This document shows, piece by piece, positions 1-62,905 of a DNA stretch of 64,000 nt (position 1 is its first letter; each line of letters opens with the position of its first letter). This DNA is from a virus (lineage: Duplodnaviria > Heunggongvirae > Uroviricota > Caudoviricetes), in the IMG/VR virus record IMGVR_UViG_3300033121_000823, positions 19,348-83,347 of that record; one strand, 5' to 3'. The notes under the pieces were generated by a model, which ran no database searches, had not been told where the DNA came from, and saw nothing but the letters and a program-made list of their open reading frames with translations. The position numbers and the translations under genes were made by a program.

Positions 1-275
1 TCAATTATTTCAGTTGCAAACGCCGTTAATTCACCATTCATATCGCTCTCATGGAAGGCATATGTTTTATATCCTAAGTTTTGGACATATACAAGAGCCT
101 TCCTAAGTTTTTCTTCCGTCTTTTCACCAAACATAATGATGTATGGATGAACGTCGTAGGTTTGGTCATTCATGACTTCAACTATAGCATGTCCAGCCTG
201 GACAGCTTGTTGTGGCCCCGATAAATCTCTTCTTACGAATACGTATAATGTTGGTTTGTGCTAACATTCTGACAT
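1..275 (-). CDS. PTH2-like peptidyl-tRNA hydrolase, partial (runs off the window start); in-frame TAG at codon 5 (+261..263)
   Basis: Minus-strand RBS GAGGTG then ATG at 275..273, codons M-S-E-C-TAG. The frame then continues HKPTLYVFVRRDLSGPQQAVQAGHAIVEVMNDQ..., which matches the PTH2 motif VVRxDLxMGxGKxAAQxxHA and has no alternative start before that motif. Confidence 0.45.
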
Positions 276-3349: not shown

Positions 3350-3538
3350 CTATTTTAAAACCTTTTCGACGTAAAATTTAAGTGATGCATGTGCTTCCTC
3401 TTTAGATGTAAACACATGAAGTGCTCCTAACATACCAGTTTCATCAAACCACACGTATCCATCTTTATCACACATATAATCCTCTATTCTTTCCCCAACT
3501 TTTACCTTATATACATGAGGTAATTCTGCCTTTTCCAT
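3350..3538 (-). CDS. hypothetical protein (TAG stop)
   Basis: 62 aa ORF; stop is TAG at 3350..3352. Confidence 0.4.
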   Translation of the reverse strand: MEKAELPHVYKVKVGERIEDYMCDKDGYVWFDETGMLGALHVFTSKEEAHASLKFYVEKVLK

Positions 3539-3822
3539 TGTTAATCTCCAACATTACATTCTTAAATTTGAGTGAACCCTTCGTATGAGGGTTATTCGGT
3601 GTTTGTTTAGTAGAGAAAGAAACATTGGCGAATTCTACTTCTTCCAAGTAAAATGTTTCGCCGCCCGTCTTAACTACCCACATAGGGATTGTCGGGTCTT
3701 CTAAGTGTTTCTTGTTAAAGTGAAATACTAGTTCTTTGCAGTGCTAGAGCATTTAAAAATCCATATTGTTAGAGGAGTGAATTCAACTGTAGGTTATACC
3801 AATTAATATAACATCATACGAG

Positions 3823-12829: not shown

Positions 12830-12830
12830 A

Positions 12831-19452: not shown

Positions 19453-19455
19453 AAG

Positions 19456-19529
19456 TTTCACTAGTTGGACTCGAACCAACGCTGTCGCGGACTATTAATC
19501 CCGCCGTTCTACCACTGAACTATAGTGAA
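19456..19529 (-). tRNA. tRNA with 8-nt anticodon loop (ATTAATAG), identity unresolved
   Basis: Acceptor TTCACTA/TAGTGAA, classic D-arm GTTC-AGTGGTA-GAAC, T-arm GTTGG-TTCGAGT-CCAAC, anticodon stem GCGGG/CCGC(T). Confidence 0.45.
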
Positions 19530-19710: not shown

Positions 19711-19992
19711 TCTTACCACTATAGTTTTCACTACCAATAAATTGTTTGTGGTCTGGACTTTTTCTTTATCATGATATTATTTCTAATATTTTAGATATTT
19801 CCCGTAAAGTCTCTGCACTTTTTGGCGTCTTCAATCAAGAATTAGACAAATGTATACTATTGTGTCATAATTGTCACTGTGAAGAACATGCCAACTTAGC
19901 TCAAGATTGCCATGATAGTTAGTAACTATCGAAGGTTTCCTTGAATTTGAGAAATTCTACTTTTACCGTTTCCAGTAAAGCACTCATAAATC
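19711..19992 (-). mobile_element. group I intron in tRNA anticodon loop (about 280 nt, no intact ORF)
   Basis: R-like GTGCAGAGACTTTACGGGAAA and S-like AAGAAAAAGTCCAGAC (compare td R GTTCACAGACTA, S AAGATATAGTCGGAC); 5' exon ends in U, intron ends in G. Confidence 0.45.
19795..19920 (+). pseudogene. remnant HNH-like ORF inside the tRNA intron (antisense)
   Basis: Short ORF ending ...ELDKCILLCHNCHCEEH resembling the C-terminal LCPNCH HNH motif of 18798..19382. Confidence 0.25.
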
Positions 19993-20027
19993 TAAGAATG
20001 GCGCTCTAACCACTGAGCTACCGGACC
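19993..20027 (-). tRNA. 5' exon of intron-containing tRNA
   Basis: GGTCCGG-TA-GCTC-AGTGGTTA-GAGC-G-CCATT-CTT; no downstream complement for anticodon stem until 19702..19706. Confidence 0.45.
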
Positions 20028-21550: not shown

Positions 21551-21623
21551 CGATGTATACGGGAATTAAACCCGCAGCATCGTGTTCGACAAACACGCCT
21601 CATTATCGTTTGAGTCATACACC
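21551..21623 (-). tRNA. tRNA-Asp(GUC)
   Basis: Acceptor GGTGTAT/ATACATC, D CTCA/TGAG, anticodon stem CGTGT/ACACG with loop TTGTCGA. Confidence 0.6.
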
Positions 21624-22269: not shown

Positions 22270-22368
22270 CAAATATTGCACATACATTGAATATTAAAAC
22301 TCTTATTATAGTTTGCAGAACCATAATAATTGCCAATGTCATCTACTGCATTATTAGATGGTGCAAGT

Positions 22369-22439
22369 GGATTGTGAAGGATTTGAACCTCCATCACCGG
22401 CTAATTCGACGGTGCATTTTTCATTATGCTAACAACCCA
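22369..22439 (-). tRNA. tRNA, anticodon arm non-canonical (unresolved)
   Basis: Acceptor GGGTTGT/ACAATCC, D GCAT-AATGAAAA-ATGC, T-arm GGAGG-TTCAAAT-CCTTC; anticodon region ACCGTCGAATTAGCCGGTG. Confidence 0.4.
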
Positions 22440-24269: not shown

Positions 24270-24611
24270 TTAATCAACTTCCTTGTATAATTTAGCATAA
24301 TCATCTTCTTTTAAGGAACTTCCAGTCTTTAAGACTGCTTCCATAACTTCTTTTCCATGCTCGCGGAAGTCCTCACCAAGATTATCTCTTGTGATTCTTC
24401 TAAGTGCTACTCTTTGGAAAACTCCAGGACTTTTAGCTACCTTTACCGCTTCGCCAGATGAAGTCTTACATTCTCTAAATCTTGCAATAATCTCTGAAAT
24501 AATTGCGATGAATCCACTTATTGTAGCAGGGTCTAAAGCAGCCTGCCTATTTCCAGTTAGTTCGCCATAATTAATGGCTGTTGCCGAAGCAACTTCTTGT
24601 AATTTACTCAT
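24270..24611 (-). CDS. hypothetical protein
   Basis: 113 aa ORF. Confidence 0.4.
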   Translation of the reverse strand: MSKLQEVASATAINYGELTGNRQAALDPATISGFIAIISEIIARFRECKTSSGEAVKVAKSPGVFQRVALRRITRDNLGEDFREHGKEVMEAVLKTGSSLKEDDYAKLYKEVD

Positions 24612-24943
24612 TATCGTCTCACGCTTCTTTGTACACTTCTAAAGCGTCCGTTTCTTTGTACAGACTTTTCAACCTGTACGTTTTGACGAACTACTTGTTT
24701 CTCTACAACAATAGCAGCGCCATGATGGCCGACAACCTGTCGTTCAACAATAATTCGTTGCGGATGTGAAACCTCAATGAATTGTACATGAGGTACTTCT
24801 ACAAACTCAACAAATCTTTGAGGATGCGCCACAACCTGTCTTTGTACAACTACATTTTGTTGACATACGTTTTGTCTACAATCTGTAGCAGATGCTACAC
24901 CAACAAAACCGAATGCGATTAGTAATCCTAAGATATACTTCAT
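24611..24943 (-). CDS. secreted low-complexity repeat protein
   Basis: Signal peptide plus degenerate repeats VVxHPQRxVE / QVVxHHG. Confidence 0.45.
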   Translation of the reverse strand: MKYILGLLIAFGFVGVASATDCRQNVCQQNVVVQRQVVAHPQRFVEFVEVPHVQFIEVSHPQRIIVERQVVGHHGAAIVVEKQVVRQNVQVEKSVQRNGRFRSVQRSVRR

Positions 24944-27280: not shown

Positions 27281-28147
27281 TTAACTTATTTTAGATATAC
27301 GATATCCAGGAATTTCTATTTTAGAAATTTGTCCACTTAAAATAATCGTAGTATTTCCTGTTGGAATTGGCGTTGGTGTTGGGTCAGGCTTTGGATTAAC
27401 TTGTGTTGGTGGCCCATATCTTAAGTCATTCAACTGTCTAATATCTTCTTTCATAGGCTTATTAATTGACGGATTGTAAAATGGGTTAATTAGGCTATTT
27501 GGAACGCTTACGTGAGATACACCAATACCATGCATCGTTTCATGACATACTACATTCTCTAAATATATTCCTCGGCCATTTTTTCCAAATGGAATCCATG
27601 TTTCATCTAAGTCAAATTTACCAAATAGCTGTCCTCTATATGAGGAAGAGGATGGTAATTGAAACCAAGCTAGTGTTCCACTAGACCCATCAAAATCATC
27701 TTGGCGACCTCTACCAACATCATATACTAAATTTGCTTCATTAGCAGATGAAACTTTTATAAAGGTTAAACCGCATACAGCACTAATATTATCTAGTGCA
27801 ACCCTAATAGTTTGTTCCCAATCTTCGCGAGACATTTCTTCATCATATCCACTTATACAATAAGTAAGAGTTTTCATGCCCCATTTTGGGACAGAGCCAG
27901 CCTCCTCAATTAAAAATTCATGGTCGGGCAATGAACATCTTGGAGATTCCATCGCACGTACTAATTTACCATCAATAGTTTCACTTGAAAAGTCTAAACC
28001 GGCAGTCTTTTTAAGACGTATAATGCCGCTCGCAATATCTTCGAGCGAAAATGTATCCTTAATATAACCATACTTCTTCAAATATGTATATACTCTTGAA
28101 ACATCTAAATCCTTATTAGATAAGAACTTACTAATTTTATCTAGCAT
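27281..28147 (-). CDS. zinc metalloprotease (zincin HExxHxxGxxH)
   Basis: VVCHETMHGIGVSH motif; Pro/Thr linker then C-terminal domain. Confidence 0.55.
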   Translation of the reverse strand: MLDKISKFLSNKDLDVSRVYTYLKKYGYIKDTFSLEDIASGIIRLKKTAGLDFSSETIDGKLVRAMESPRCSLPDHEFLIEEAGSVPKWGMKTLTYCISGYDEEMSREDWEQTIRVALDNISAVCGLTFIKVSSANEANLVYDVGRGRQDDFDGSSGTLAWFQLPSSSSYRGQLFGKFDLDETWIPFGKNGRGIYLENVVCHETMHGIGVSHVSVPNSLINPFYNPSINKPMKEDIRQLNDLRYGPPTQVNPKPDPTPTPIPTGNTTIILSGQISKIEIPGYRISKIS

Positions 28148-28159
28148 AGAATTCTCCTA

Positions 28160-28186
28160 TAAAAAAAGCCCACAATTAGTGGGCTT
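28160..28186 (-). terminator. intrinsic terminator after 28206..28757
   Basis: AGCCCAC-AATTA-GTGGGCT hairpin followed by TTTTTTT on the minus strand. Confidence 0.5.
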
Positions 28187-28205
28187 TGGATACACTCAGT
28201 TTAAA

Positions 28206-28824: not shown

Positions 28825-29283
28825 TTAGGAATTTTTAATCTTATTCACGAGAGATATAACTCTTAGTCGCATACCTTCAGTCGTTATTCCATAAATCTTA
28901 CTAAGTTCTGCATTCGTATATTTCATGACAAACCGTTCATTAAACAATTTCTTTTCTTCTGCTGATAATCCATCTAAAATATCTATTATTTCTGTAGAAA
29001 AATCCTTAAAGGAAATATCAATATACTCATCAATATTTTTGTCATGCGGTTTATAGTAAGTTACATAAATGTTATAACACTCCCATTTTATCCTCATAGT
29101 AAGGTACGTCTTAAATGACATACCCCTATCATTCTTAAAATGTGCAAGCGCATTCATAAGTCCTATCATACCAGCACTTTTTCGTTCTTCTGGAGATAAG
29201 TTTTTTCCAAAAAATCTAGTTACTGATTCAATAGTATGTTTATTCTCAGAATACTTTGATTCGAAAGTAGTATTATCTATCAT
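28825..29283 (-). CDS. sigma-70 family sigma factor (regions 2 and 4)
   Basis: Region 2-like GMIGLMNALAHFKNDRGMSFKTYLTMRI; region 4 HTH LSAEEKKLFNERFVMKYTNAELSKIYGITTEGMRLRV. Confidence 0.6.
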   Translation of the reverse strand: MIDNTTFESKYSENKHTIESVTRFFGKNLSPEERKSAGMIGLMNALAHFKNDRGMSFKTYLTMRIKWECYNIYVTYYKPHDKNIDEYIDISFKDFSTEIIDILDGLSAEEKKLFNERFVMKYTNAELSKIYGITTEGMRLRVISLVNKIKNS

Positions 29284-29924
29284 ATTAGATTACATTTCGT
29301 TTTAGAAGTTAAAAATATACCATTACTAAACTGATATGCAGTAAGGAGTTCCGATTTTTTCTCCTCATACATTATATCGTTTGATATATTCGTTCCCGTA
29401 TAATCATACGAGGCATTTGGAAAAATATAGATGCACCAATCCTTAAAATTAGACTTAAGCGTATCTAGTATTTCCGATAACATCTTTCCATCTTTTAATG
29501 GAATATTCTTAACCTCTAATCCACATACTCTCTGTTGAATATCTAGTTTTACTTGTGTCGTATCAAATAGACTTCCAATAGCAATTATAAATCTATACCT
29601 AGAGATTATTCTTAATACTTCAACACCAGGAGTTTTCTTTATAGTCTCTCTAGAAACTTCACCAATTGAAAAGTTAGTATGACCCATCCAGAATTTAAAT
29701 TGTTTCATTGGATGCAGCGTATCATCAATCTTCCATAGTCCAAATGGAGTCATTGACATCTCTTGAACTGGAATCATATCATCAAGTTGAAGTAAGGTAT
29801 CTTCTTCAGCCGTAGAAAAATCAGACTTTTCTTCTTTTAATAAGGTATTTTTAATTGGACTATAGTCATAGTGCATACTTTCCCAGTGAATTTTACGTTC
29901 CATCTGTTTTTCCTCCAGTAGCAA
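29280..29924 (-). CDS. hypothetical protein
   Basis: 214 aa ORF between sigma-like genes. Confidence 0.4.
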   Translation of the reverse strand: MLLEEKQMERKIHWESMHYDYSPIKNTLLKEEKSDFSTAEEDTLLQLDDMIPVQEMSMTPFGLWKIDDTLHPMKQFKFWMGHTNFSIGEVSRETIKKTPGVEVLRIISRYRFIIAIGSLFDTTQVKLDIQQRVCGLEVKNIPLKDGKMLSEILDTLKSNFKDWCIYIFPNASYDYTGTNISNDIMYEEKKSELLTAYQFSNGIFLTSKTKCNLI

Positions 29925-30228
29925 AAACTAGCTCAGGGTCAACTATTGGAACCTCTTCACCATTTTCATCTTGATTAATATACTTCTTCTGTTCTTCTAT
30001 TAGGCTATATACGTCTAGCAATACATCTGAAAGAGTTTTCACAACTACAACTTTTAATGCTTTTAATTGTTTCGTATCTACTTTATCAGCGGCGGCCGTA
30101 TATACATCAGTAAGTAGTGACGTATTCATAATACGTCTTAGGGCATTACCAAACTTATCTATATCGGTAAACTCTACATCTATCATTATATTGTCTATAT
30201 CTTCAAAGTCAAATGTAATTTTATTCAT
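29893..30228 (-). CDS. hypothetical acidic protein
   Basis: 111 aa ORF. Confidence 0.35.
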   Translation of the reverse strand: MNKITFDFEDIDNIMIDVEFTDIDKFGNALRRIMNTSLLTDVYTAAADKVDTKQLKALKVVVVKTLSDVLLDVYSLIEEQKKYINQDENGEEVPIVDPELVFATGGKTDGT

Positions 30229-34393: not shown

Positions 34394-35443
34394 TTAGAAC
34401 TTTGCAACACCTAGTGGTATTGATTGAATATCATAAATATAATCAGTCTTAAACGACCGATAATTGCCTGCTGACTTATCATCTGAAGTCATGTAGAAGG
34501 TAAATACATCACAATCCTCATTATCGTGTAGAACACCGCACCGTGTTTCTTCCTCGCCGTCTTCCTTAACATATGTAAAGGAATAGTGCTTGTTAAGAGT
34601 CATATCATCTGTAGTCAACTCTTCTACGTATTCAGACTCGTCTACTACGGTAATATCCTTAGTATCGTAATCATCGCCAACATTACCACTATAAACTGGA
34701 GCGTTTAACGGAGCCTTATAATCTCCAACTACAGTATATGCACAAGTTCTCAACTTTTGGCAGTTATGGTCATTAGGAACACTAACAACATCCTCAGGAG
34801 CAACCTTACAGATGATTACCTTATCTCCACTGGAATGATACCAGCCGGTAGGCCCACTGTAAGCTAACGCTCCAACGTGGAAACCTTGTGAACAATGTCT
34901 TGTGAAGTCATCATCCACTTCATTACGCGGCATACGCATAGTAGCTCCAGGCTTATTATCATAAGTTCCTGAATACTTATCTAAGTAGTTTCCACGAACT
35001 GACTTATATGCTAGAAAGCATCCATCCTCAGTTAACATTAATCCATTTACTTCCAAGAAGCCCCACAATTCCTTCACACTTCGTGAAGATGGATTTTGTA
35101 GAAGCCGCTCGAAGAACTTTACCAAAGGAGTAAAGTCGAAACCGTTAGCCATCATTGACATGATAGCCTTAGAGACGCTATTACTTACAGGATTTCCGTC
35201 AACATAAACTCCTGTGGAATCTACAGTTACACGGTCTAACGTCCCAATTCTTTGGTTTACTACTTTCGCGACCTCTTTTACGGTGTCTAAATTCTTCAAG
35301 AAAAGGTCTGCATCCTTTTCATTAAAAGCCTTCCGTAGGACCGCATATTGCGGATGGTCCTTAGCAACTGTATATGCTGAACCATCAACAAGAACATTCA
35401 AAGTACCATCACCAATAACCTGACGACCAATCATTCTACTCAT
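34394..35443 (-). CDS. rIIB: rIIB
   Basis: FLAYKSVRGNYLDKYSGTYDNKPGATMRMPRNEVDDDFTRHCSQGFHV aligns with T4 rIIB FYAWKVVRSNYFDCHSNTFDNSPGKVVSMPRNSVNDDDTQTCSRGLHV. Confidence 0.8.
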   Translation of the reverse strand: MSRMIGRQVIGDGTLNVLVDGSAYTVAKDHPQYAVLRKAFNEKDADLFLKNLDTVKEVAKVVNQRIGTLDRVTVDSTGVYVDGNPVSNSVSKAIMSMMANGFDFTPLVKFFERLLQNPSSRSVKELWGFLEVNGLMLTEDGCFLAYKSVRGNYLDKYSGTYDNKPGATMRMPRNEVDDDFTRHCSQGFHVGALAYSGPTGWYHSSGDKVIICKVAPEDVVSVPNDHNCQKLRTCAYTVVGDYKAPLNAPVYSGNVGDDYDTKDITVVDESEYVEELTTDDMTLNKHYSFTYVKEDGEEETRCGVLHDNEDCDVFTFYMTSDDKSAGNYRSFKTDYIYDIQSIPLGVAKF

Positions 35444-35473
35444 AAATTTTCTCCAAATAAAAAAAAACGAAAT

Positions 35474-37447
35474 TTACTTACTATCTATCATACGAACATA
35501 ATTTTTAACGGCAGGCGTCGTATAATTCGACGCACTAACATATTGAAGCATAGGATATAATTTTTCTATCTTATCGTTCAATGTTTTAACTTTAACTTTA
35601 GCATCATCAACCTCTTTAATTTTTTCACTAAAGAAAGATTGATACATGTCATATAGATACTTATAGTCACTATCGTAATCTAACGACTTAATTATATCTA
35701 TTTCATCCTTCGAAAGGTTCTTTGACGGAGTATTAAATAGATTTCTATTTAGTATAGGATATGACGCATCAATTTTGTAAAGATTATTCTTTAATATTGT
35801 ACGAGTCTCATCTTTTAAATAATCATCAATATGAGTCCATCCAGCATTCTTTGCAGAATCTATTAGTTTTGATTTTAGACCAAAAATTGAGTCTAATACT
35901 GCTGAACAATTGTTCAGTTGCTTGATAAGTCGTGACATTGAATACCAATTCATCTTCGCATTTTTAATATCAAAACCGTGTAACTCGCAGTATACACCCT
36001 TTTTAGTAAAATCTATCGTTTCAGATACCCAACTTTTAGTTATATACGAACTTTGTTGATATCGCATTCCTTGCGAAGTTTTTGCTCTAGCTACACCTTT
36101 CTTTCTAGTTGGCTGATAAGTAACAGAACTTATTGGAAGTATAATTGAGTCATCACAACCTAGAGCATTAATGACAGACTGCTTATCCTCAAATAGATAA
36201 GCGGCTTTTCCAGTATTTGCTACATAATTGCGTAGACGGACTACTGACCCCTTCTTCTTAATAGCTGCTAAATCATCATAAAAAATGGTAAATTCTTGAT
36301 TTAGAGATATATATCTATGATTAACAGTAATCTTCGTATTTGAAAAATTCTTATAGCATTTACGACAATCATTAACTGATAAAGTAAATCCTGAGTCAGG
36401 AAATAATTGCTGATTATTATATTGAAAAGCTGAAACATTCAATATTCTTTGCAAAGTATAATCAAGCTTAGAATAATACTCAATGAATGTTAGACGCGAT
36501 TCATATAAGTTTTTACTATTCTTATAGGACTCAGATGCCATATTCTGAATAGAATTCTTAACCTTGTTCAAGGTATTCTCTATGAATGCTATAGTCTTAG
36601 CGTCATAGGATAAGCCCTCGCGAGAAACTTCAATTGATACATCTCCAGTTTCTACAAAAATATCTATTCCGGCAGAAGTAATAGCATTATTTATGCTATG
36701 ATTTACTACTGGATATGCAACTGATGCCATAATAATGCGGCAGCCAGTACCATCGCCCTTTCTAATACCCCAATTATCTTTCTTTAAAGAATATTCGGGA
36801 TTTACAATATTCAATTTATTTCCAACCATCTTTGGCTTAACAGTAAAATACTTATATAAGTCTGTTGCCCTATTAGCAAATGCTGATTCATCACCACGAA
36901 CAGTTGGAAAGCTAATCTTTACACCACTTCTTTCCGGCGAATGAACTTCGGAAAGTAGAGATAATGACGGAACTCCATCCTTGTTTAGGAAGGCTCGCCA
37001 TTCATACTTAATACCATTATACCAACTTGTAATATTGAATGTTCGTGTATGATATGAGAATGGTGTTTTCGACCCAAGTCCAAGACATCCATTAAATAAG
37101 TTAGAATTATCCTTACTAGACATTCCGTATGTGCTGAATACTTTTTGAATCGTTTCTTTGGACATACCAGTTCCAAAGTCGCGAATGTAAAATTCTGGCA
37201 TACTCCAAGTGGGGATATGTACCTCAAAAGCTTCAGCAGCGTTTCCATTTGCTATATGACTATCAAGAGCATTTGTACTTAGTTCACGGATGCAGGCTCG
37301 AATCTTATCAGAATATAATCCATCCGACAAAATATGGAACATTTTCGGCCCCATACTTATGGAGAATGTACTAGTTTCAAATGTATCGTCGTCTAAATTT
37401 ACGACTCTATTACCTTCATTCAATAACTTCATTAGAATTTTCCTCAA
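35474..37447 (-). CDS. rIIA: rIIA
   Basis: [38 protein letters not shown] aligns with T4 rIIA [47 protein letters not shown] also shared; 657 aa. Confidence 0.85.
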   Translation of the reverse strand: [657 protein letters not shown]

Positions 37448-37853
37448 TTATAGAATTAACCCAACTGTCTACACTCTTTAATACTTTTAATTGTTCTGAA
37501 TCAGGAACAGAATTCCTAACCCAGTTTTTAATGACGGACGGCATAAATAGTCTTCCATCTTTAATACCGTACGTTATACATCTATCACAATACTCAAAAA
37601 CGCTATCTTCATCATAGGATGTAAGTATTAGCTGTGGTTTTCCGGCTATTGCGTAAACTACTACAGCACGCTGTATTCTACCTAAACCAGTAATATACTT
37701 TATAAGGAAAGGGTCAACTATCGGCGTAACATCATCTTTTTTCTCTATTACCCTTACTACACTTTTCCCAAATTCATATCCGCAGGGACAAACTTTTGTC
37801 CTAACCCCTACAGAGCGTTTACATTCTGAGCATATCTTTTTTCCCTTACTCAA
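37416..37853 (-). CDS. zinc-ribbon protein
   Basis: CSECKRS...CPCGYEF. Confidence 0.4.
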   Translation of the reverse strand: MSKGKKICSECKRSVGVRTKVCPCGYEFGKSVVRVIEKKDDVTPIVDPFLIKYITGLGRIQRAVVVYAIAGKPQLILTSYDEDSVFEYCDRCITYGIKDGRLFMPSVIKNWVRNSVPDSEQLKVLKSVDSWVNSIIEENSNEVIE

Positions 37854-38070
37854 GTTCTATACCCGCCTTCCTGATAACCGATGCCGTATCAAATACCTTA
37901 TCTTCATCATGCTTAGAAAAACCAATTTCAGATACCACTATATCTTTATCAATAGAGTAGGATTCGTCTAAATATAAAAGTAAAACATTTATTGCAGCGT
38001 CTAAGTGATTGTTAATTTTATCGTTACAGATAACTACTCGTAAGTTACCGGAGCTAACATAGTACTTCAT
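37846..38070 (-). CDS. hypothetical protein (same frame as upstream ORF, separated by TAG plus 4 codons)
   Basis: 74 aa; weak RBS. Confidence 0.35.
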   Translation of the reverse strand: MKYYVSSGNLRVVICNDKINNHLDAAINVLLLYLDESYSIDKDIVVSEIGFSKHDEDKVFDTASVIRKAGIELE

Positions 38071-38082
38071 ATGTAATATACT

Positions 38083-38472
38083 CTAATTTTGAGTCTCCGT
38101 CAACGGGGCGTACAATTTTTCACAGTCTTTTATTATTTCCTCGTCAGTTTTTTCACTAAAATCTTCAAGAAATTTTGGGACATTTTGTATGGCTATGGAA
38201 GGTGGAAACCTACAGTTTTGTGCGATATGTAAAAGCCACACAGCTTCTCCATTCAGTCCATCAAAATTAATAGAGAAAAAATCACATGTGCGTGCAGCGT
38301 TTACGTCGTGAATGTCTATTCTAGACTTCGTTGAAACGATTATAGTAATCTCTTTTAGTTTCGAGCCGAGTTGTTTGGCTAACCCGCTAGCCCACTTAGC
38401 CGGTCCCTTTATAAATACTGCGTTTGGCGACATGCCTACTGGCGGCTTCCATTTATTTGGAGTTATAGACAT
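38083..38472 (-). CDS. hypothetical protein (TAG stop)
   Basis: 129 aa ORF. Confidence 0.4.
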   Translation of the reverse strand: MSITPNKWKPPVGMSPNAVFIKGPAKWASGLAKQLGSKLKEITIIVSTKSRIDIHDVNAARTCDFFSINFDGLNGEAVWLLHIAQNCRFPPSIAIQNVPKFLEDFSEKTDEEIIKDCEKLYAPLTETQN

Positions 38473-42967: not shown

Positions 42968-44032
42968 TCATAATACTGTTGTTTTATCCTTATAAGTTGT
43001 TCCATAACTCTTCCACTTGATTGGTGATGAAATTAATGACTCTGAAAAACCTTTCGGCTTCTTATCGCACCAAGTTAAGAATATTCCGTCAGGTTTAACA
43101 ATTCTTTCAGCATTTTGAAAGATTCTTAAATTGTCACCAAATGTTCCATACTTGATTGGACCTTGATTTTTGTTGAATTTATTATGGTCGTCACCTAAAT
43201 TAATTCCAATTTCGGATTCGTTGAACGGTCCATCACCATGCCTTGAAAAGAATGTACGAATTACTCCAACAATTTCGGCGGTAATCCCTCTTAGTTTACA
43301 AAAATCTAGTGCATATCGAGGAGTTACACTGCTCCAAGTAGTGTACGGAATCATTCCATAAACTTCATCTAATCCAAAACCTTGAGTTCCCTCAAAAATA
43401 TAACACTTAAAGTGTTCTTCATATGGAGCTTCAAACATTTCAAGCGTTTCACCACACCATGACCACGGATTAAAGCTTATTAGCTTTTCAAGTATTTCAT
43501 AAGTACCAGAATAATTATAAAAAGAATCTATATATCTCTCTTTCATGAGATAAAGCTTATCTAGCTTATCCTGTACAGAGTCTCCATAAAAGATTGCGTC
43601 ATTGCCATACTTTAGGAAATATTCCTTAGTCTTTCCAACTCCAACTCCACAACTTAAATATCCATCATGGAAATCCATATATTTTTGGAGTGGAGTAGTT
43701 ACTAAACATTTAGGATGTATCCTCATTACATCTCTAAAATTTACAAAATTCTTCAACGCTTCATATTCACGACGCATTGCCAATGGTTCTACAATAGAAT
43801 TCCTATCATGCAATGTTTTCACCCCATGAAATGTTCCACTTCCAAATTGTGAGAAGATATGACTATGACCACTTGGTAAAACTACTCTATGTCCAGCCTG
43901 ATGGCCACCACAAAATCTGACATTTACTACGTCAGATGGAAAGTGCGTCTTAACGGCGTTAGCCGTAAAATAATCTACTGCTGTACCCTTTCCCTCATCA
44001 CCGAATCCCATACCAACTACAATTTTATTCAT
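42968..44032 (-). CDS. adenylosuccinate synthetase family protein (PurA-like, possibly PurZ)
   Basis: GFGDEGKGTAVDY (P-loop GDEGKGK), CGGHQAGHRVV (GGHNAGH), FEGTQGFGLD (FEGAQG); IMP-site motif GTTGRGIGP diverged to CGVGVGKT. Confidence 0.7.
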   Translation of the reverse strand: MNKIVVGMGFGDEGKGTAVDYFTANAVKTHFPSDVVNVRFCGGHQAGHRVVLPSGHSHIFSQFGSGTFHGVKTLHDRNSIVEPLAMRREYEALKNFVNFRDVMRIHPKCLVTTPLQKYMDFHDGYLSCGVGVGKTKEYFLKYGNDAIFYGDSVQDKLDKLYLMKERYIDSFYNYSGTYEILEKLISFNPWSWCGETLEMFEAPYEEHFKCYIFEGTQGFGLDEVYGMIPYTTWSSVTPRYALDFCKLRGITAEIVGVIRTFFSRHGDGPFNESEIGINLGDDHNKFNKNQGPIKYGTFGDNLRIFQNAERIVKPDGIFLTWCDKKPKGFSESLISSPIKWKSYGTTYKDKTTVL

Positions 44033-46710: not shown

Positions 46711-46781
46711 GCGTAGCGAGTAGTCCCGCAGGGAATCGAACCCTAGAAGCCGACTTTATAAGAATCAGCCGTACAACCAGT
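46711..46781 (-). tRNA. tRNA, anticodon probably UAU (Ile-AUA type)
   Basis: Acceptor GGTCCTG/CGGGACT with GU pairs, anticodon stem TGATT/AGTCG with loop CTTATAA, T-arm TAGGG-TTCGATT-CCCTG. Confidence 0.4.
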
Positions 46782-46815
46782 AGCCAGGACCATACTGCCT
46801 TTCGGCAGTTTTAAT

Positions 46816-51110: not shown

Positions 51111-51728
51111 TTAATCTTTGACTACGATATTTCGTCTATTTATTTCATTTTTAATATCTTGTAGAGTTGTTTTGTGAGAAACGCCTAATCTTTTTTCAAG
51201 ATTGTGTATTTCTTTTATTTCTTCCATATCTTTAGTACTAGAAGCTTTATGAATTTGCGAAAATGCGTAACCTTTAAACGAGTGCCATGCTTTCTTACTT
51301 AGGAATAAGTCCCTTCTTTCCCTAACTAGATTTCCGACCTGAGTAGAATGGATAACACACTCCAATGGAGTGTATAACGAGTCAACCATGTTGGGATTGC
51401 ACTCGGAAGCTAAGGCAAAGTAGTCAACAATATTGTATATCGTGACATCATACTGCTTATCTTCATCCTGAATGTGATGAAGTTGATAGGAAGAGAAACG
51501 ATTATTCAATGTACGCCACTTTCCAAAACCGACAAGTTGTCGGTCAAGATGTGGGAATAGTTCACTTTTTGGAGGGATACAAAATCCATATATGTCGACG
51601 TCTGACCCACCATTACTTACATGGTAGGCTTGACTGCCCATAATTGTTAGGTAATGAATATTATCAACTATCCATGCTTCGCATCCCGGCAGTAACTTCT
51701 TATCATATAACCGTTTAATCAAATTCAC
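51111..51728 (-). CDS. Pol-beta-superfamily nucleotidyltransferase, unknown substrate
   Basis: GSQAYHVSNGGSDVDIYG fits the GS-x9-DxD minimal NTase motif. Confidence 0.45.
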   Translation of the reverse strand: MNLIKRLYDKKLLPGCEAWIVDNIHYLTIMGSQAYHVSNGGSDVDIYGFCIPPKSELFPHLDRQLVGFGKWRTLNNRFSSYQLHHIQDEDKQYDVTIYNIVDYFALASECNPNMVDSLYTPLECVIHSTQVGNLVRERRDLFLSKKAWHSFKGYAFSQIHKASSTKDMEEIKEIHNLEKRLGVSHKTTLQDIKNEINRRNIVVKD

Positions 51729-52179
51729 ACAATACCTCGCTTAAATCAATTTCTAGTTCACTTTCTATAAATGGAACATAAATAGCACGTTCAAATGTAT
51801 CATTCCATTGGTCTTCATTGAGGCATTGGATAAAAAATTCATCCAACAATCCATCATCAATATCTAAGATTTCCATACATATTCTATGTCTTGCAGCATA
51901 CTCTTTACAGTCTAACTTTCCTTCAGCATCATACGTTTCGCCTTCGTAAAGGAAGGCAAAATGCCAAGATGATTGAGGAACATCATTGAAAGTACCAGCA
52001 ATCCACTTCTTATTACATTCAATTGGATATTCAGTTGACGCAAACTGAATTACCTTGAATGATGACATGTCACAGCCATTCTTTTCCAAGTAAAGATAGG
52101 CGGCGTATACACCTACTAAGCAGCCACCATTATTAATTGTTGGAATTTGAGATGTTACTTTGAAGAAGTTATAGAGCAT
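51715..52179 (-). CDS. hypothetical protein
   Basis: 154 aa ORF. Confidence 0.4.
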   Translation of the reverse strand: MLYNFFKVTSQIPTINNGGCLVGVYAAYLYLEKNGCDMSSFKVIQFASTEYPIECNKKWIAGTFNDVPQSSWHFAFLYEGETYDAEGKLDCKEYAARHRICMEILDIDDGLLDEFFIQCLNEDQWNDTFERAIYVPFIESELEIDLSEVLCEFD

Positions 52180-52182
52180 ACT

Positions 52183-52443
52183 CTACTCCGTAATATTCCA
52201 AGCTTTCTTAATTTTGGAAACCGTATCTTCATCAACATGTTGAATCAAATAACATTGGTCTAGAAATGCCTCATTAGAGCCTCCAGATTTATGGACACCA
52301 CCATCTGTCATATCTAAGAATGTAACTACATCAAAACCATAGTCAGCATCAAAATGTGTTTCCTTAATACAGACACATACGTCCATACCGTAGGAATCGC
52401 CAGTCAATACTACATCGCCGACTTTACAGTTATAAAGGTTCAC
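52183..52443 (-). CDS. hypothetical protein (TAG stop, same frame as next gene)
   Basis: 86 aa ORF. Confidence 0.4.
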   Translation of the reverse strand: MNLYNCKVGDVVLTGDSYGMDVCVCIKETHFDADYGFDVVTFLDMTDGGVHKSGGSNEAFLDQCYLIQHVDEDTVSKIKKAWNITE

Positions 52444-52585
52444 TTTTTTGCCCTTCTATTTGAAATCACTTTTAATCAACATTCTATGTTCCTAAAGCAT
52501 ACGAAAATATTTTTCGAAATAAAAAGTGCCCGGAGGTTCCGCCATTATACTTGGAAGGAACCTACCGGGCAAGGGGTCAGAAAAA

Positions 52586-53158
52586 TCAGCAACTGCATGT
52601 GAAGAACGAGCCGCCACCGTCCTTATTCTCGTACTTTGTTCCCTTAATTCCATCTAACTCATTATAGTGAGTCCAAAATTCGTCGGGAACAGATTCACCA
52701 TCAAAGCGTGGGCCGTGATTTACGTAATCCCCATATTCAACATATCGCTTTCCATACTCGACAACCTCATCAAAATCCATTCCATAACATGCTGCCCATT
52801 TGGTAATCCAGCCAATATGGCTATCCTCATATCTTTTTTCTAGTTTTTTAGAATATGAATCATGGTCGAAAGAGTCATGTTCCCATGCATGGCGTAATGA
52901 AGAGATACTACCGGGATACAAACAAAGGAGGCACGTATCGTCATACGTTTTATCCTTCTCAAATGGATTAACTACTGCTACGTGAGGTCTAAATGAACAT
53001 GAGACATAGTATGTTCCGTCAATTTTCTTAATGCCAACATGGTCACCGGGCCATACAGGTTCACGAACCTTAGCAACAATGACCGCAATATGTAGAGCAT
53101 CTCTTACGCCAACATCCTCATCAGTCAACTTTTTCAAAAATAGATTATCCTGCGACAT
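52586..53158 (-). CDS. hypothetical protein
   Basis: 190 aa ORF. Confidence 0.4.
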   Translation of the reverse strand: MSQDNLFLKKLTDEDVGVRDALHIAVIVAKVREPVWPGDHVGIKKIDGTYYVSCSFRPHVAVVNPFEKDKTYDDTCLLCLYPGSISSLRHAWEHDSFDHDSYSKKLEKRYEDSHIGWITKWAACYGMDFDEVVEYGKRYVEYGDYVNHGPRFDGESVPDEFWTHYNELDGIKGTKYENKDGGGSFFTCSC

Positions 53159-54629
53159 TACTGCGAACCTCCTTTAAAGTATACTCTTTGAGTAATTTTC
53201 CATTAAGAAAAACTGGTTGCATAATATTCCACATCTTAAAAGATGCATTATATTCTTCCTTCGATAAATCTTCAACAAGCTCAAGTTTGGAAGTACGTTT
53301 TACTCCAAGTAAACCTCTCGCAGACTTCTTAACTCCATCATCAGTCTTTGGGTCTTTAAATACGTTGATAGACTTCCCATCTACTTCTCCATAAGTAGTC
53401 TTAACTGCAAATCCAAACGTATCTCTAGTAGTATACCTATAAGTGAATGAGCCAATTCCAAGAACAGGGATATTACTTGCGAAACCCTTACGTTTTAAGC
53501 CCTCTAAAATATCTCTTTGACGTTCCAAAGTAATTGAATCGCCATAAATAATTCCAATGTGTGGGTCAAGACTCTTGTAACCCTTACGAGTAAAGGAACC
53601 GCCGAAAATCTTATGCATCATTTCAACAGAACCATAATACTCTGGAGTTCCAAATGTAGCATCTTTATCGCCACAAATAATTTTAGTTGGATTACCGGAA
53701 TCGGGCCTGATTGTAACCTTACCACTCCTATTCATAATTTCATTCTTCAACTTTGGAAGAATTTCTGTAATGACCTTCCAATAGTCATAAGAATCACATA
53801 CAATGGAAACTATTCCATCTGGATATACTTCAGTGATTAACCGCTTAAACTGTTCGAGTTCTCCAGTCAATAAATCTTTTCCACTCGCGAGAATTGCTAT
53901 AGTTTGTGTTGAATGCTCTGTAGCAACAACAGATGTTCCAATTAGTCCTGTAGCACCATAATAGTGCTTAAGAAATTTTACGGCAGGAACTGTATCTGTA
54001 CCAGTAAATGATAATAAGTGGCCAGCTCCACTTAAACATGCACTTTCTAAGCCAGACATCCCTCTATAAGAGAAATCATGCCCTTGCCATTGCACAAAAT
54101 CTCTATCGCCAACCGTTTCATCGGCATATTCATTAAATACCCGTCTATATTCAGCAGCAATAGTGGCGGAAGTACATGGTTCCCAAAGTACATTCGACAT
54201 ACTTGTTTCTAAGAAGTTTGTTAACCAGAAAAAGTCTGGCAATGTATTATGAATAGTATACATTGGTACACGTAGAGGAACTTTAGTGCCCTCTGGTACT
54301 GCACAAATCTTAATTGGAAGATATCCTAATGTATGTAAATCACTTACATGCTTAGATGAAATGTCGCGACCAACAAAATCACGAATATTTTCTTCATGCT
54401 CTTCGAGAACAGAGCTTTTCGGTCGATTAAAAAAGTTATCATTCCACTGACGAATCAAATAATCCTTAATGTAATATTGTAATCCAAAAAATACAACCTC
54501 ATTAATATTTGGAATACGAGACCCACGCGGTGTAAAATTTGAATAAATTCGTTCAGTGTCTTGAGGATACTGATTTCTGTGGTCTAACTTATATGAATCA
54601 GTATATGTCAATGGCATCATTTCAATCAT
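53145..54629 (-). CDS. NAMPT-family enzyme (NadV or Namat)
   Basis: 494 aa; N-terminal LTYTDSYKLDHRNQYP and overall length fit the NAMPT family. Confidence 0.7.
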   Translation of the reverse strand: MIEMMPLTYTDSYKLDHRNQYPQDTERIYSNFTPRGSRIPNINEVVFFGLQYYIKDYLIRQWNDNFFNRPKSSVLEEHEENIRDFVGRDISSKHVSDLHTLGYLPIKICAVPEGTKVPLRVPMYTIHNTLPDFFWLTNFLETSMSNVLWEPCTSATIAAEYRRVFNEYADETVGDRDFVQWQGHDFSYRGMSGLESACLSGAGHLLSFTGTDTVPAVKFLKHYYGATGLIGTSVVATEHSTQTIAILASGKDLLTGELEQFKRLITEVYPDGIVSIVCDSYDYWKVITEILPKLKNEIMNRSGKVTIRPDSGNPTKIICGDKDATFGTPEYYGSVEMMHKIFGGSFTRKGYKSLDPHIGIIYGDSITLERQRDILEGLKRKGFASNIPVLGIGSFTYRYTTRDTFGFAVKTTYGEVDGKSINVFKDPKTDDGVKKSARGLLGVKRTSKLELVEDLSKEEYNASFKMWNIMQPVFLNGKLLKEYTLKEVRSNVAG

Positions 54630-60068: not shown

Positions 60069-60348
60069 GCTACTACAAAAAGAAAGTAGTGATATAGCCA
60101 AATAGAAGAATAGCAAATGTTACAATATTTAGAGCTGTTAGCTTTACACACGTTGGGTATTTTTCATCATTGGGAATAAATTTCAAATTCGCTAAATTTA
60201 GAATTAACATGATTCCATACGCCTGAGGAAATGTCAACAAGGCAGTTCCAAAAGTAGTTACAATGAACCACGCCCATAAAAGCTTGAATGTAAGAGCCTA
60301 GAACATTCCTGTCAAAATAGCGTAAACAAAACTTCCAAAATGTGCCAT
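60069..60348 (-). CDS. small membrane protein with in-frame TAG at codon 17 and TAGTAG terminator
   Basis: RBS AGGAGAATTAAG-ATG, then MAHFGSFVYAILTGMF-TAG-ALTFKLLWAWFIVTTFGTALLTF... (74 more hydrophobic codons), ending TTG TAG TAG. No ATG/GTG near the start of the downstream part. Confidence 0.4.
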
Positions 60349-60358
60349 CTTAATTCTC

Positions 60359-60553
60359 CTAAGTCATAATGATAAAATCAACATCACCACCAACTTTACA
60401 TCTTTCCAAGAATTGTTTATCTGGAAAAACTATGACATTAGTTACAGTTTCCAAATCTAAAAATCCAAGATTATCACCAATTCTAGGAACGAAATTTGTA
60501 TTTTTACATACTTGTTTTAGTGTCTTGCTGCTTACAAAGATTATTCTATACAT
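60359..60553 (-). CDS. hypothetical protein (TAG stop), paralog of next ORF
   Basis: Shares PR(I/V)GD...FP.K..L with 60557..60784. Confidence 0.4.
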   Translation of the reverse strand: MYRIIFVSSKTLKQVCKNTNFVPRIGDNLGFLDLETVTNVIVFPDKQFLERCKVGGDVDFIIMT

Positions 60554-60556
60554 CGT

Positions 60557-60784
60557 TTACTCCGCAAAAACTATGGCAACGTAATCATTATTTGGATAAT
60601 TATTTCCAGGTAAATTTATTTTATTCAAATAATCTTTTGTTGGAAACAAAAGAACCTGCTTAACGACTGGAAATAATCCATTTACTTTAGGACAACATAC
60701 TAACATATCTCCTACACGAGGAATAATAGGAGCAATCATTACAAGCGATGAAGTCATACTAAAATTGGATATGTATATCTTCAT
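60557..60784 (-). CDS. hypothetical protein, paralog of 60359..60553
   Basis: 75 aa ORF. Confidence 0.4.
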   Translation of the reverse strand: MKIYISNFSMTSSLVMIAPIIPRVGDMLVCCPKVNGLFPVVKQVLLFPTKDYLNKINLPGNNYPNNDYVAIVFAE

Positions 60785-61076
60785 ACTAGCTCCTCAAACT
60801 GATTGAAGCAATTTGTACTCCATAGTAATCACCACGCATATCATATTGACGTTTATATTCATCAATAATTTTTTCAATGTCAAACTTCATTAGATAGTAT
60901 TGAGTAGTAAGTTGAATGACTACAATCAATCTGTTCGTTTCTTTTTCGATTACTAAGATTGAGTTCATGCTAATCGCGCCTTTCTAGCAAAGAAAGTAAA
61001 GTTTTCTATTATGTTGTACTTGTGATGGACGCAACGATTCTACTTCTTTTTGAGTTAGCATAAACTATTAATCCTT

Positions 61077-61787
61077 TTAAGATGTGGACGCAATTAATTT
61101 ACAATATCTAATAAATTCATCTTGTGATAACTCATTTTTCATATAATTAACAGTCCTATGTACTATTTGAATATTATCTTTAGTATAACCTAAATTATTA
61201 TTAATTCTATCTACTGATGCAGTACCATCAGTAAAAGATATTGAAATATTAGATAATATACATTTGTATTTTTGCTGAACCAGTAAGTTTTCTATGTCTT
61301 GTAATGTTATCTCAAATATTCTATTTTTCCTCTTAGATTCTCCTTTTAATTTTGAAAAATACCGTTTTATATTTTTAACTTTATTTGATGGAATAAATTT
61401 TGATGATTTATGACATAATATACATCCAGATTCATTATAATTAAATATATCTGCTTTTTTATAAGATATATTACCACAGTCGCATTTAGTTTGATAATAT
61501 ATAACTGGTCTATTTTTTATATATTCTCTTTTATATCCAATAACAGTTAATGTGCCGCGTTTTTCGCCAATTGGTATTGTTACACAATATTTACAATTAC
61601 GTTTATTATTTAATGTGTTAGCAACAATTATTTGTTCTGTATTACACTTTTTACATTTTACTAAAATAATATCTAAAGGATACTTATAGTGTTTACCTTT
61701 AGTTTTTTCTCCTACCTTATCTAAGATAGTATAGGTAGGATGATTAAGTTGTTTCCATTCATCATTAGTTTTATGTAAAGTAGTCAT
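61077..61787 (-). CDS. Mob-like HNH homing endonuclease paralog
   Basis: CDCGN...C zinc finger and ASVDRINNNLGYTKDNIQIVHRTVNYMKN. Confidence 0.5.
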   Translation of the reverse strand: MTTLHKTNDEWKQLNHPTYTILDKVGEKTKGKHYKYPLDIILVKCKKCNTEQIIVANTLNNKRNCKYCVTIPIGEKRGTLTVIGYKREYIKNRPVIYYQTKCDCGNISYKKADIFNYNESGCILCHKSSKFIPSNKVKNIKRYFSKLKGESKRKNRIFEITLQDIENLLVQQKYKCILSNISISFTDGTASVDRINNNLGYTKDNIQIVHRTVNYMKNELSQDEFIRYCKLIASTS

Positions 61788-61840
61788 TGTATATCCTATT
61801 CATGGTTTATCTATCCATGAATATATACACCTAACTACTT

Positions 61841-62566
61841 TTATTTTTGCCTTTTTAAGGCATATAAAGCTCTTACAGCATCACTATTCTTTTTTTGCTG
61901 CCCATGCAAAACGAGACAAAAACTTTCTTCTTTCGTCAGTGGATTTGCAGCATGACTATCATCCTCGTCGATAGGCATATTTCCAGCCTCATGACGATTG
62001 AAGATAACCTTTGAATAACGAAGATTATTTTCAACAATCATGTGGTCAAGTCTACCTCCATACGAGGCAGTTAATACGAAATTGGCAGGAATATCCTTAA
62101 TTTTATTTGACCAAACTTTGAGATTCTTTGTGTAAGCATAGAATAGTCTATCGCTATGTAGCTCTGCCATTCTTACCCACGCATCAAAATATGCCTGAGA
62201 AAAGAAATCGCCCGAACTATGTATTCTACACACTCCTAGATTAGAAGGCATCGAGTCATTTAATAGAGAAAAAATGTGTGAAGATGTTTTTGCCGACCTA
62301 ACCAATTTCGTATTATGGTCGTCCGACGCAAACTTTGCCTTATACAATACTTCCAATGAGGCCGCGTAACACCTAAACTTTGTGTGCGGCCCGTCCACTA
62401 TCTTCCCATCAACAACCTTAGATAGACACTCATTACTATAGGGGCAAGTATGTCCCGCCAGTAAGTCGAGCGAATATATCTTTCGGTCGCCGCCTAAATA
62501 CTTCTTAATCCAAGGAGCTTTAGCAAGCTTTTGTAGCTTGCTGTTTGCCTTGGAAAACTTCAACAT
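61841..62566 (-). CDS. hypothetical protein
   Basis: 241 aa ORF. Confidence 0.45.
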   Translation of the reverse strand: MLKFSKANSKLQKLAKAPWIKKYLGGDRKIYSLDLLAGHTCPYSNECLSKVVDGKIVDGPHTKFRCYAASLEVLYKAKFASDDHNTKLVRSAKTSSHIFSLLNDSMPSNLGVCRIHSSGDFFSQAYFDAWVRMAELHSDRLFYAYTKNLKVWSNKIKDIPANFVLTASYGGRLDHMIVENNLRYSKVIFNRHEAGNMPIDEDDSHAANPLTKEESFCLVLHGQQKKNSDAVRALYALKRQK

Positions 62567-62582
62567 ACTTATTTTTCTCCTG

Positions 62583-62789
62583 TTACCACCAAAGTGTTTT
62601 CTTTTTCTTTACAATCACATATTCTATCTCAGATAGAGCGATATTCATGATTTGAATATTTTTGTCGAGAACTATCAATTCCATGGAATTTATAGAATCG
62701 CCCGAATATTTAATCTTAAACTCTTTAAACCATATGGAGATAGAGTTTCCACTTTTAAAGCCAATTTCAACTAGTGAAGCTTCTTTCAT
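62583..62789 (-). CDS. hypothetical protein
   Basis: 68 aa ORF. Confidence 0.35.
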   Translation of the reverse strand: MKEASLVEIGFKSGNSISIWFKEFKIKYSGDSINSMELIVLDKNIQIMNIALSEIEYVIVKKKKTLWW

Positions 62790-62833
62790 GTTTTTTCTCT
62801 ATTAACTTTTGATAAATCTGAATAATCGCGAAG

Positions 62834-62905
62834 TGTCTCTACTAGGACTCGAACCTAGATTTTGGGATTTAGAGTCCCTCGTATTTCCAATTATACGATA
62901 GAGAC
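62834..62905 (-). tRNA. tRNA with anticodon CUA (putative amber suppressor, or sense-UAG decoder)
   Basis: Perfect acceptor GTCTCTA/TAGAGAC, D GTAT-AATTGGAA-ATAC, anticodon stem AGGGA/TCCCA with loop CTCTAAA (C32 U33 C34 U35 A36 A37 A38), T-arm CTAGG-TTCGAGT-CCTAG. Confidence 0.5.

Follow-up and report, generated by a model that had tools for sequence, protein, structure and literature searches.

The DNA considered here is a stretch of 64,000 nucleotides (nt) from a virus of the Caudoviricetes (IMG/VR record IMGVR_UViG_3300033121_000823, positions 19,348 to 83,347). This whole stretch is called the window in the following, and all of its recognisable genes lie on the minus strand. Three small genes in the window have an in-frame TAG codon within their first 17 codons. 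The window also encodes a transfer RNA (tRNA) of the amber-suppressor type with the anticodon CUA. These four elements are the subject of the analysis:

1..275, minus strand: PTH2-like gene (phrog_3668), cut by the edge of the window, TAG as codon 5 (261-263)
3507..3752, minus strand: gene for a small beta protein of the FHFNK family, TAG as codon 3 (3744-3746)
60070..60348, minus strand: gene for a membrane protein of 91 amino acids (aa) with about three hydrophobic segments (phrog_2169), in-frame TAG as codon 17
62833..62905, minus strand: tRNA with the anticodon CUA in the loop CUCUAAA, no encoded CCA (called by ARAGORN)

An original prediction, made from the sequence alone, had proposed a canonically folded tRNA at 62834..62905 with a CUCUAAA loop and a CUA anticodon, and both methods used here agree with it. 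ARAGORN called a tRNA at 62.8 kb with the anticodon CTA (62833-62905, minus strand), and the Rfam model RF00005 matched 62834-62905 with 62.5 bits, a score that ties for the best tRNA in the window. The cloverleaf is regular save for an A27-A43 mismatch; together with the CUA anticodon it has the canonical form expected of an amber suppressor. An identical tRNA-CUA is present in seven further contigs (L001-L006 and L017). A 184-kb syntenic Logan contig from a relative carries a diverged copy (L016) with five substitutions, all of them outside the anticodon; the CUA, on which the prediction hinged, is retained there as well. The nearest phage tRNA is a tRNA-Gln(UUG) from contig L007 with 67% identity, and the two have in common the D-arm, the A27-A43 mismatch and the variable loop AAAT. 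Because of this resemblance, and because of a CAG/TAG polymorphism described below, Gln is the likely amino acid, and the tRNA-CUA of the window phage probably accepts it. P0014 (MSQQQIEY...) was left out of the argument for Gln, since it could be a code-15 translation itself.

The PTH2-like gene has the layout that had been predicted for it. A Shine-Dalgarno (SD) motif GAGGTGA at 282-288 and a spacer of six nucleotides precede the ATG at 273-275, which is followed by TCA GAA TGT TAG CAC. There is no ATG, GTG or TTG in frame for 29 codons past the TAG. The full length of the protein, known from contigs L007-L011, is 103 aa, and phrog_3668 ('hydrolase') aligns with residues 9-88 (E 9e-8). The full-length homologs P0005 and P0006 (PF01981, precomputed) begin with MYVFVRRDL, which corresponds to a position 5 codons past the TAG; the earliest internal start that could be used lies 25 codons further on. 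The assignment to Pth2 is tentative and comes from the family: the window protein alone scored E 0.091 against PF01981, below the cut-off, while the family profile matched the Pth2 structure 2zv3_A with E 2.5e-4 over 82 positions. An hhalign comparison with the annotated PTH of phage Phosso gave E 0.0023 with a probability of 12%. A relative with 85% identity (L014/L015) reads AAGGAATAATCT ATG CGT TAG CAC AAA CCT. In this relative the leader peptide has changed from MSEC to MR and the SD motif has changed too, while the TAG is kept; the L014 gene shows synonymous changes directly past the TAG.

The gene at 3507..3752 goes beyond the two genes of the original prediction. It begins with ATG CTC TAG CAC TGC. 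We named the family FHFNK after the motif CKE.VFHFNKKHL.DP.IPMW. A full HMMER search of 1.84e9 representatives gave 117 homologs. The complete members of the family begin 4-17 residues ahead of the CKE.VFHFNK motif, and for this reason the stretch of 20 residues that separates the TAG from Met21 is coding and conserved. In an AlphaFold2 model (predicted local distance difference test, pLDDT, 93.8) the first beta strand spans residues 2-10. No relative of the fold was detected and no match was obtained among solved PDB structures. The distant relative L020 reads GGAGAATAGC ATG TAT TAG CAC TGT, which means that the leader differs (MY in place of ML) and that the TAG is the same.

The layout of the membrane-protein gene, predicted at 60069..60348, also held in its main points. 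An SD motif AGGAGA (60355-60360) and a six-nucleotide spacer lead to the ATG at 60346-60348; the TAG at 60298-60300 is codon 17, and 74 sense codons follow up to a tandem TAG TAG at 60070-60075. The first in-frame start past the internal TAG is a TTG, 19 codons on and without an SD motif. The profile phrog_2169 ('membrane protein', moron/host takeover category) aligns with residues 3-90, that is across the TAG (E 3.4e-7). A tblastn search with the protein against phages gave one weak match only. In a sister strain (L001, L002, L004 and L005) the site reads TTT CAG; in the window, L003 and L006 it reads TTC TAG. All six contigs, whether they have CAG or TAG, carry the identical tRNA-CUA. We also considered whether the 91-aa protein is a holin and found no support for this identity: there was no Pfam match, only phrog_2169 was found, and the neighbours are small open reading frames (ORFs) of unknown function.

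According to these comparisons the sequence past each of the three TAGs is coding. The homolog support for the read-through form, which the original prediction depended on, is found in the PHROG alignments, the MYVFVRRDL starts and the CAG variants.

The TAG leader of the FHFNK family is widespread. Two scans of IMG/VR yielded 108 unique FHFNK loci with 57-75% identity, which are phylogenetically related, meaning that the counts do not represent independent events. A TAG leader, defined as a short ATG leader with the TAG 6-10 codons before FHFN, occurs in 106 of the 108. It consists of ATG, one to three codons and TAG, and the commonest form is ATG-NNN-TAG (66 of 106). Of these 106 loci, 105 have an SD-like motif ahead of the leader ATG, whereas 7 have one ahead of the codon that follows the TAG. 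A same-strand tRNA-CUA lies within the 1.5-kb flank in 71 of the 108 loci, usually 24-1356 nt upstream. The control group of TAG-less loci comprises 2 of the 108, too few for a comparison. The gene is also present, unannotated, in the cultured T4-like Rhizobium phage RHph_I1_18, where it starts with ATG AGT GAG TTC ATG TAG AAC (TAG as codon 6) and ends 30 nt before an annotated tRNA-Pyl(cta).

The PTH2-like family shows similar leaders in large phages:

IMG/VR contig L108 (488 kb): ATG GGA TTC ACG TAG, with a second TAG at codon 48
uncultured phage LR756511 (595 kb): ATG ACT CAC TAG, record without annotation
Serratia phage BF: ATG ACG CAC TAG, unannotated
Cronobacter phage GAP32: ATG GCA CAA TAG, truncated annotation
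Ralstonia phage RsoM2USA: ATG TTG TAG, unannotated
Acinetobacter phage ME3: ATG ACT TAG, with a tRNA labeled 'anticodon CTA' 450 nt upstream

RsoM2USA has been reported to carry a CUA suppressor (PMC8504454), and a tRNA-Pyl is listed for Erwinia-phage relatives of BF (PMC7760394). Not all members have the leader. In RAS14 and XacN1 the PTH2-like domain is fused to an N-terminal extension and there is no TAG. Phage Atu_ph07, whose suppressor is opal and not amber (PMC6102473), contains both families, both without TAG. In Atu_ph07 and Phosso the PTH2 gene and the gene with the FHFNK domain are two genes apart in one operon. The position of the TAG is kept in two families across very distant phages, with 43-72% protein identity and with different hosts and GC content, while the leader codons change. 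Because the TAG is kept while the leader peptide and the SD motif change (MSEC to MR and ML to MY, each followed by the stop), the alignments argue for selection on the TAG itself.

A further observation concerns the surroundings of the FHFNK gene. In L059, L061-L064 and L066 a permuted transfer-messenger RNA (tag peptide ANDTRFALAA, found with ARAGORN) lies about 540 nt downstream of it. RHph_I1_18 also has a feature annotated as SsrA. The transfer-messenger RNA is another ribosome-rescue element near the tRNA-CUA/FHFNK module.

We consider it likely that the window comes from a standard-code phage in which a small set of conserved genes is placed under a suppressor-dependent translational gate. 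Translation would initiate normally at the SD motif and AUG, and the ribosome would meet the UAG after 2-16 codons. In the absence of charged suppressor tRNA it would then terminate or drop off after a peptide of 2-16 residues. When charged tRNA(CUA) outcompetes release factor 1 (RF1), a fraction of the ribosomes would read through and produce the full protein. The output of the three genes would in this way track the ratio of charged tRNA(CUA) to RF1, i.e. the expression of the phage tRNA. Ordinary UAG terminators would still work, with suppression being partial and read-through at these sites adding short tails only. It is known from minigene studies that release factors act slowly on very short nascent peptides. 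An early UAG may favour the tRNA over RF1 because termination on such peptides is slow; in addition, a failed read-through would cost little.

Several observations weigh against this gating. Read-through is deduced from sequence, and the pointers to a charged tRNA that decodes UAG are indirect, namely the conserved in-frame UAGs within coding sequence and the CAG/TAG polymorphism. The distances between the tRNA and the three genes are 2.5, 59 and 62.6 kb, meaning that a local linkage is missing in the window, and no recognisable SD motif precedes the FHFNK leader there. Among the strictly gated FHFNK loci, 34 of 104 show no tRNA-CUA within their 1.5-kb flanks, and the relatedness of these loci reduces the weight of the counts. 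XacN1 has two CUA tRNAs and yet carries its PTH2-like domain in the TAG-free fusion (PMC5852040). The assignment of Gln to the tRNA is tentative, since G1-C72 and A73 differ from E. coli tRNA-Gln and the sequences of CUA tRNAs vary widely among phages. The TAG in the membrane-protein gene is polymorphic, with CAG in other strains, and may be a tolerated mutation and not a selected gate. Furthermore, the tandem TAG TAG at the end of this gene, which had been predicted to be a termination signal that survives the suppressor, is a single case. TAG terminators have no protective back-up stops behind them: the median distance to the next stop is 9 codons in TAG-ended genes, compared with 7 in genes ended by TAA or TGA.

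Three other explanations were weighed against gating. The window could be the standard-code early part of a phage with a genome-wide reassignment of TAG to Gln (code 15). The suppressor tRNA-CUA, the interchange of CAG and TAG and the second TAG at codon 48 of the L108 gene would be consistent with this, and published recoded phages keep the standard code in their early genes (Borges et al., bioRxiv 10.1101/2021.08.26.457843). However, TAG terminates 16 of the 119 window genes (13%; TAA 61, TGA 42, all on the minus strand) and is not depleted; in this point the original prediction, which had noted TAG as an ordinary stop of many genes, was right. The same 119 genes contain 482 CAA/CAG codons against 3 in-frame TAGs, and these are not scattered: a single TAG occurs in each of about 2.5% of the genes (3 of ~120) and never beyond codon 17. 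In the published recoded clades 26-71% of the genes have in-frame stops, with a concentration in late, structural and lysis genes (Borges et al.). With TAG read as sense, ORFs of 100 aa or more gained 1635 aa, less than the 2330 aa gained with TGA as sense. Among the features of a code-15 phage, the window has the CUA tRNA; it lacks the share of genes with in-frame TAG, the gain in coding density and the depletion of TAG. The late genes point in the same direction. In the 184-kb relative the strand switches about 12 kb past the position of the right end of the window, and a late-type block follows. Among its products are a sigma factor, the large terminase subunit (TerL), which contains an intein, and proteins with lengths of 701, 467, 335 and 733 aa. 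In this close relative, which bears the tRNA (L024), about 19 kb of the block contain 20 genes with 6307 codons, 210 of them for Gln; the block is 98.6% coding in code 11, and none of the 20 genes has an in-frame TAG. The same block is present in two further contigs, one of them from the sample which gave the variant starting with MR, stop and HKPT. RHph_I1_18 and the cultured jumbo phages are likewise annotated normally in code 11, structural genes included. Genome-wide reassignment is therefore very unlikely, and the predicted preference for gating over wholesale recoding is supported by the few in-frame TAGs relative to Gln codons, by the TAG stops and by the clean late genes of the relative.

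The TAGs could also be nonsense mutations that are tolerated because a suppressor is present for another purpose, either codon supply or a counter-defence against tRNA-cleaving nucleases. In this case CAG would have drifted to TAG with no regulatory role, and Borges et al. have proposed drift of this kind after a suppressor has been acquired. The TAG of the membrane-protein gene, polymorphic with CAG among strains, could be explained in this way. Drift, however, would be expected to place TAGs anywhere among the approximately 480 Gln codons, while all three occur among the first 17 codons; nor does it explain why two families keep the place of the TAG across very distant phages while the leader codons change. 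As an account of the three genes together it appears improbable. The remaining explanation treats ATG-NNN-TAG as a mini upstream ORF, after which the main ORF is reinitiated at the adjacent codon, the tRNA(CUA) being irrelevant. AUU is known from infC as a weak bacterial start codon. The post-TAG codon is ATT or ATC in 90 of the 106 FHFNK loci, so that AUU could serve as a weak start there, and the leaders comprise merely 2-4 codons. In contrast, this codon is CAC or GCT in the lineage of the window and AAT, AAC, ATT or GTT in the PTH2-like genes, and most of these cannot initiate. The Ile at this position is also conserved in FHFNK members without TAG (e.g. MIELACKE). Reinitiation furthermore leaves unexplained the tRNA-CUA within 1.5 kb at 71 of the 108 loci and the CAG/TAG polymorphism 16 codons into the membrane protein, within a transmembrane segment. 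We regard it as having hardly any prospect of being correct, much like the reassignment of TAG.

With respect to a purpose of the gate, it might serve a delayed or feed-forward expression linked to the synthesis of the phage tRNA, or a feedback sensing of suppressor activity. The gated module may have a role in the turnover of tRNA and peptidyl-tRNA; this is favoured because one product is PTH2-like, because the FHFNK gene usually adjoins the tRNA-CUA and because the two families are neighbours in Phosso and Atu_ph07. A far-reaching and rather doubtful extension is that T4-like and jumbo phages of many hosts share a single conserved circuit, made up of the tRNA(CUA), the amber-led FHFNK protein and the amber-led hydrolase of the PTH2 type. 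In such a circuit the 5' UAG would sense suppressor activity versus RF1, and both proteins would feed back on the metabolism of tRNA or peptidyl-tRNA; they might, for instance, deacylate or recycle the suppressor, or clear the products of drop-off. If this is true, the phage keeps a stop-codon suppressor at a controlled level in a standard-code genome, which would be a natural feedback device comparable to the prfB frameshift and would supply the targets of these suppressor tRNAs that the genome papers on jumbo phages did not find.

Other interrupted genes were also screened. When the same automated screen of the window was run on TGA and TAA as controls, it yielded no interrupted gene that has an ATG behind an SD motif and is free of a competing ORF. 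The automated TAG screens of the relatives and of RHph_I1_18 were too noisy or too strict, as they missed known cases, and were not used as evidence. A fourth candidate in L003 (1137-1547), in which MNLPGKGIIIFLER is followed by a stop and KVSL, was discarded: it is a copy with an out-of-frame deletion with reference to P0008-P0011, and its TAG lies outside the ancestral frame. The corresponding L003 region 1060-1547 is a paralog of the window gene 12452-12829 and represents a pseudogene or an assembly error. The in-frame chains at 51715-52719, 29280-29999, 27281-28195, 12452-12895 and 24270-24668 were rejected as well, because an ordinary TAG stop is followed there by a new start. One locus is of a different kind:

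37846..38472, minus strand: possible read-through fusion of a 129-aa gene ending in TAG (38083-38085), four codons and the in-frame ATG of a 74-aa gene

The TAG, the frame and the spacing are kept in the diverged contig L012, where the spacer differs by two changes, one synonymous and the other Ser/Gly. The profile phrog_25164 matched weakly across the junction (E 0.0035), and no homolog spanning both halves was found. This locus may be a read-through fusion of the type of Q-beta A1 or murine leukemia virus (MuLV) gag-pol. Another PTH2-like gene, at 2001-2400 of the IMG/VR contig L109 (130,845 nt), has no TAG leader; its reading frame changes midway, owing to either an error of sequencing or programmed frameshifting.

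With 35.5% GC, the window is rich in AT. Code 11 covers 86% of it when ORFs of at least 60 aa are counted, and ARAGORN called 17 tRNAs. From its context genes the phage is a large T4-like phage, rich in genes for tRNA maintenance and NAD+ metabolism. The following features were recorded in addition to those above:

34394-37447 and 53145-54629, minus strand, and in L001, L002 and L016: rIIA-like (657 aa), rIIB-like, NAMPT, CCA-adding enzyme, Thg1-like, AAA_33 kinase, HSP20 and a DUF7788/DUF2828 protein
19734-20017, minus strand: match to the group I intron model RF00028 of Rfam (55.4 bits, gathering score 50) in a tRNA-rich region
19455-19529, 21551-21623, 22368-22438 and 46720-46791, minus strand: unusual tRNAs (ARAGORN/Rfam)
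42968-44032, minus strand: PurZ-like relative of adenylosuccinate synthetase, 354 aa (phrog_1211, '2-aminooxy adenylosuccinate synthetase', E 8e-44)
61077-61787, minus strand: HNH/endonuclease VII-like gene, 236 aa, present in the window, L003 and L006, missing from the L001-type strain variants

The group I intron match at 19734-20017 has no identified host gene. The unusual tRNAs include one with a four-base anticodon 'taat' (ARAGORN), with similar 'ttaa' tRNAs in L013 and L014; two tRNAs were found by Rfam only and one tRNA-Ile(tat) by ARAGORN only. The PurZ-like gene could point to modified (2-aminoadenine) DNA. The endonuclease gene at 61077-61787 looks like a mobile homing-endonuclease insertion; the L001-type variants also differ in the small genes that flank the amber-led membrane-protein gene. 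A LAGLIDADG endonuclease is part of the intein in the TerL of the 184-kb relative, a protein of 1271 aa (L022 12701-16516 / L024 4013-7828); the L025 version has 1011 aa. Queries of INPHARED and IMG/VR with DNA, the exact tRNA sequence and GP88 found no close relatives. Promoter and terminator sites around the tRNA were not above chance (25 versus 19.1 +/- 4.0).

CUA tRNAs have been noted before in large standard-code phages, with no target genes named (RsoM2USA, PMC8504454; gut jumbo phages, PMC11662467). The authors of the XacN1 genome (PMC5852040) examined in silico the read-through of 18 amber terminators and found no targets; these would have been missed because the ends of genes were examined, whereas the conserved UAGs sit at gene starts. 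A single UAG within the first few codons of specific small families in standard-code phages, often beside the tRNA-CUA, appears to be undescribed in the literature that was searched. The present genes are conserved candidate targets for the amber-suppressor tRNAs of many such phages. They suggest a second use of stop suppression by phages, with a single UAG just past the start of a few genes in place of module-wide recoding. They also uncover a systematic annotation error. In GenBank, the records of Serratia BF, RsoM2USA, RHph_I1_18, ME3 and GAP32 lack the genes or give them in truncated form, and those of fHe-Yen9-03/04 and the pEa_SNUABM phages probably lack them too. The link to tRNA and peptidyl-tRNA turnover to which the PTH2-like hydrolase and the tRNA-adjoining FHFNK beta protein point is testable in cultured phage-host pairs.

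Stop-codon recoding in phages was reportedly presented as a regulator of late and lysis genes by Ivanova and colleagues in 2014. The general idea that a suppressor tRNA and in-frame stops regulate expression is already known from recoded phages (Borges et al., bioRxiv 10.1101/2021.08.26.457843; Peters et al., PMC9523058). Like these, the window phage has its own suppressor tRNA(CUA), a standard-code host, an in-frame TAG equivalent to Gln and stop-bearing genes that would be silent until decoding changes. Unlike the recoded phages, in which the stops are scattered and the reassigned stop is depleted as a terminator, its stop-bearing genes are of the early type and lie beside rIIA/rIIB and tRNA genes.

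The prfB gene for release factor 2 is autoregulated by a programmed +1 frameshift at the UGA of codon 26. As in prfB, one early in-frame stop would turn the output of the amber-led genes into a read-out of termination efficiency. They differ in that the escape would occur via a cognate suppressor tRNA and not via a +1 frameshift, and in that the link of the products to RF1 or tRNA is only hypothetical, whereas the product of prfB is itself a release factor. The bar minigenes of phage lambda cause drop-off of peptidyl-tRNA, which is countered by peptidyl-tRNA hydrolase. They resemble the leaders described here in their order of SD, AUG, one or two codons and stop, and one of the gated genes is itself PTH2-like; the bar minigenes, however, stand alone with no in-frame protein behind them. 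In the read-through of Q-beta A1 and MuLV gag-pol the stop ends a complete ORF and is read at a low rate by a near-cognate host tRNA, which extends the protein at its C-terminus, whereas the stops in the window are 2-16 codons from the start and would be read by a cognate phage tRNA. A similar design is a synthetic one: in an amber-gated feed-forward loop with a suppressor tRNA, 5' amber codons and the co-expressed suppressor form an AND gate with low leak (PMC7969014). Such gates and the reporters used in genetic-code expansion employ the same combination of a 5' amber codon and a suppressor. They are engineered, whereas the gate proposed for these phages would be evolutionarily conserved and a natural counterpart to the amber-gated switches of synthetic biology.

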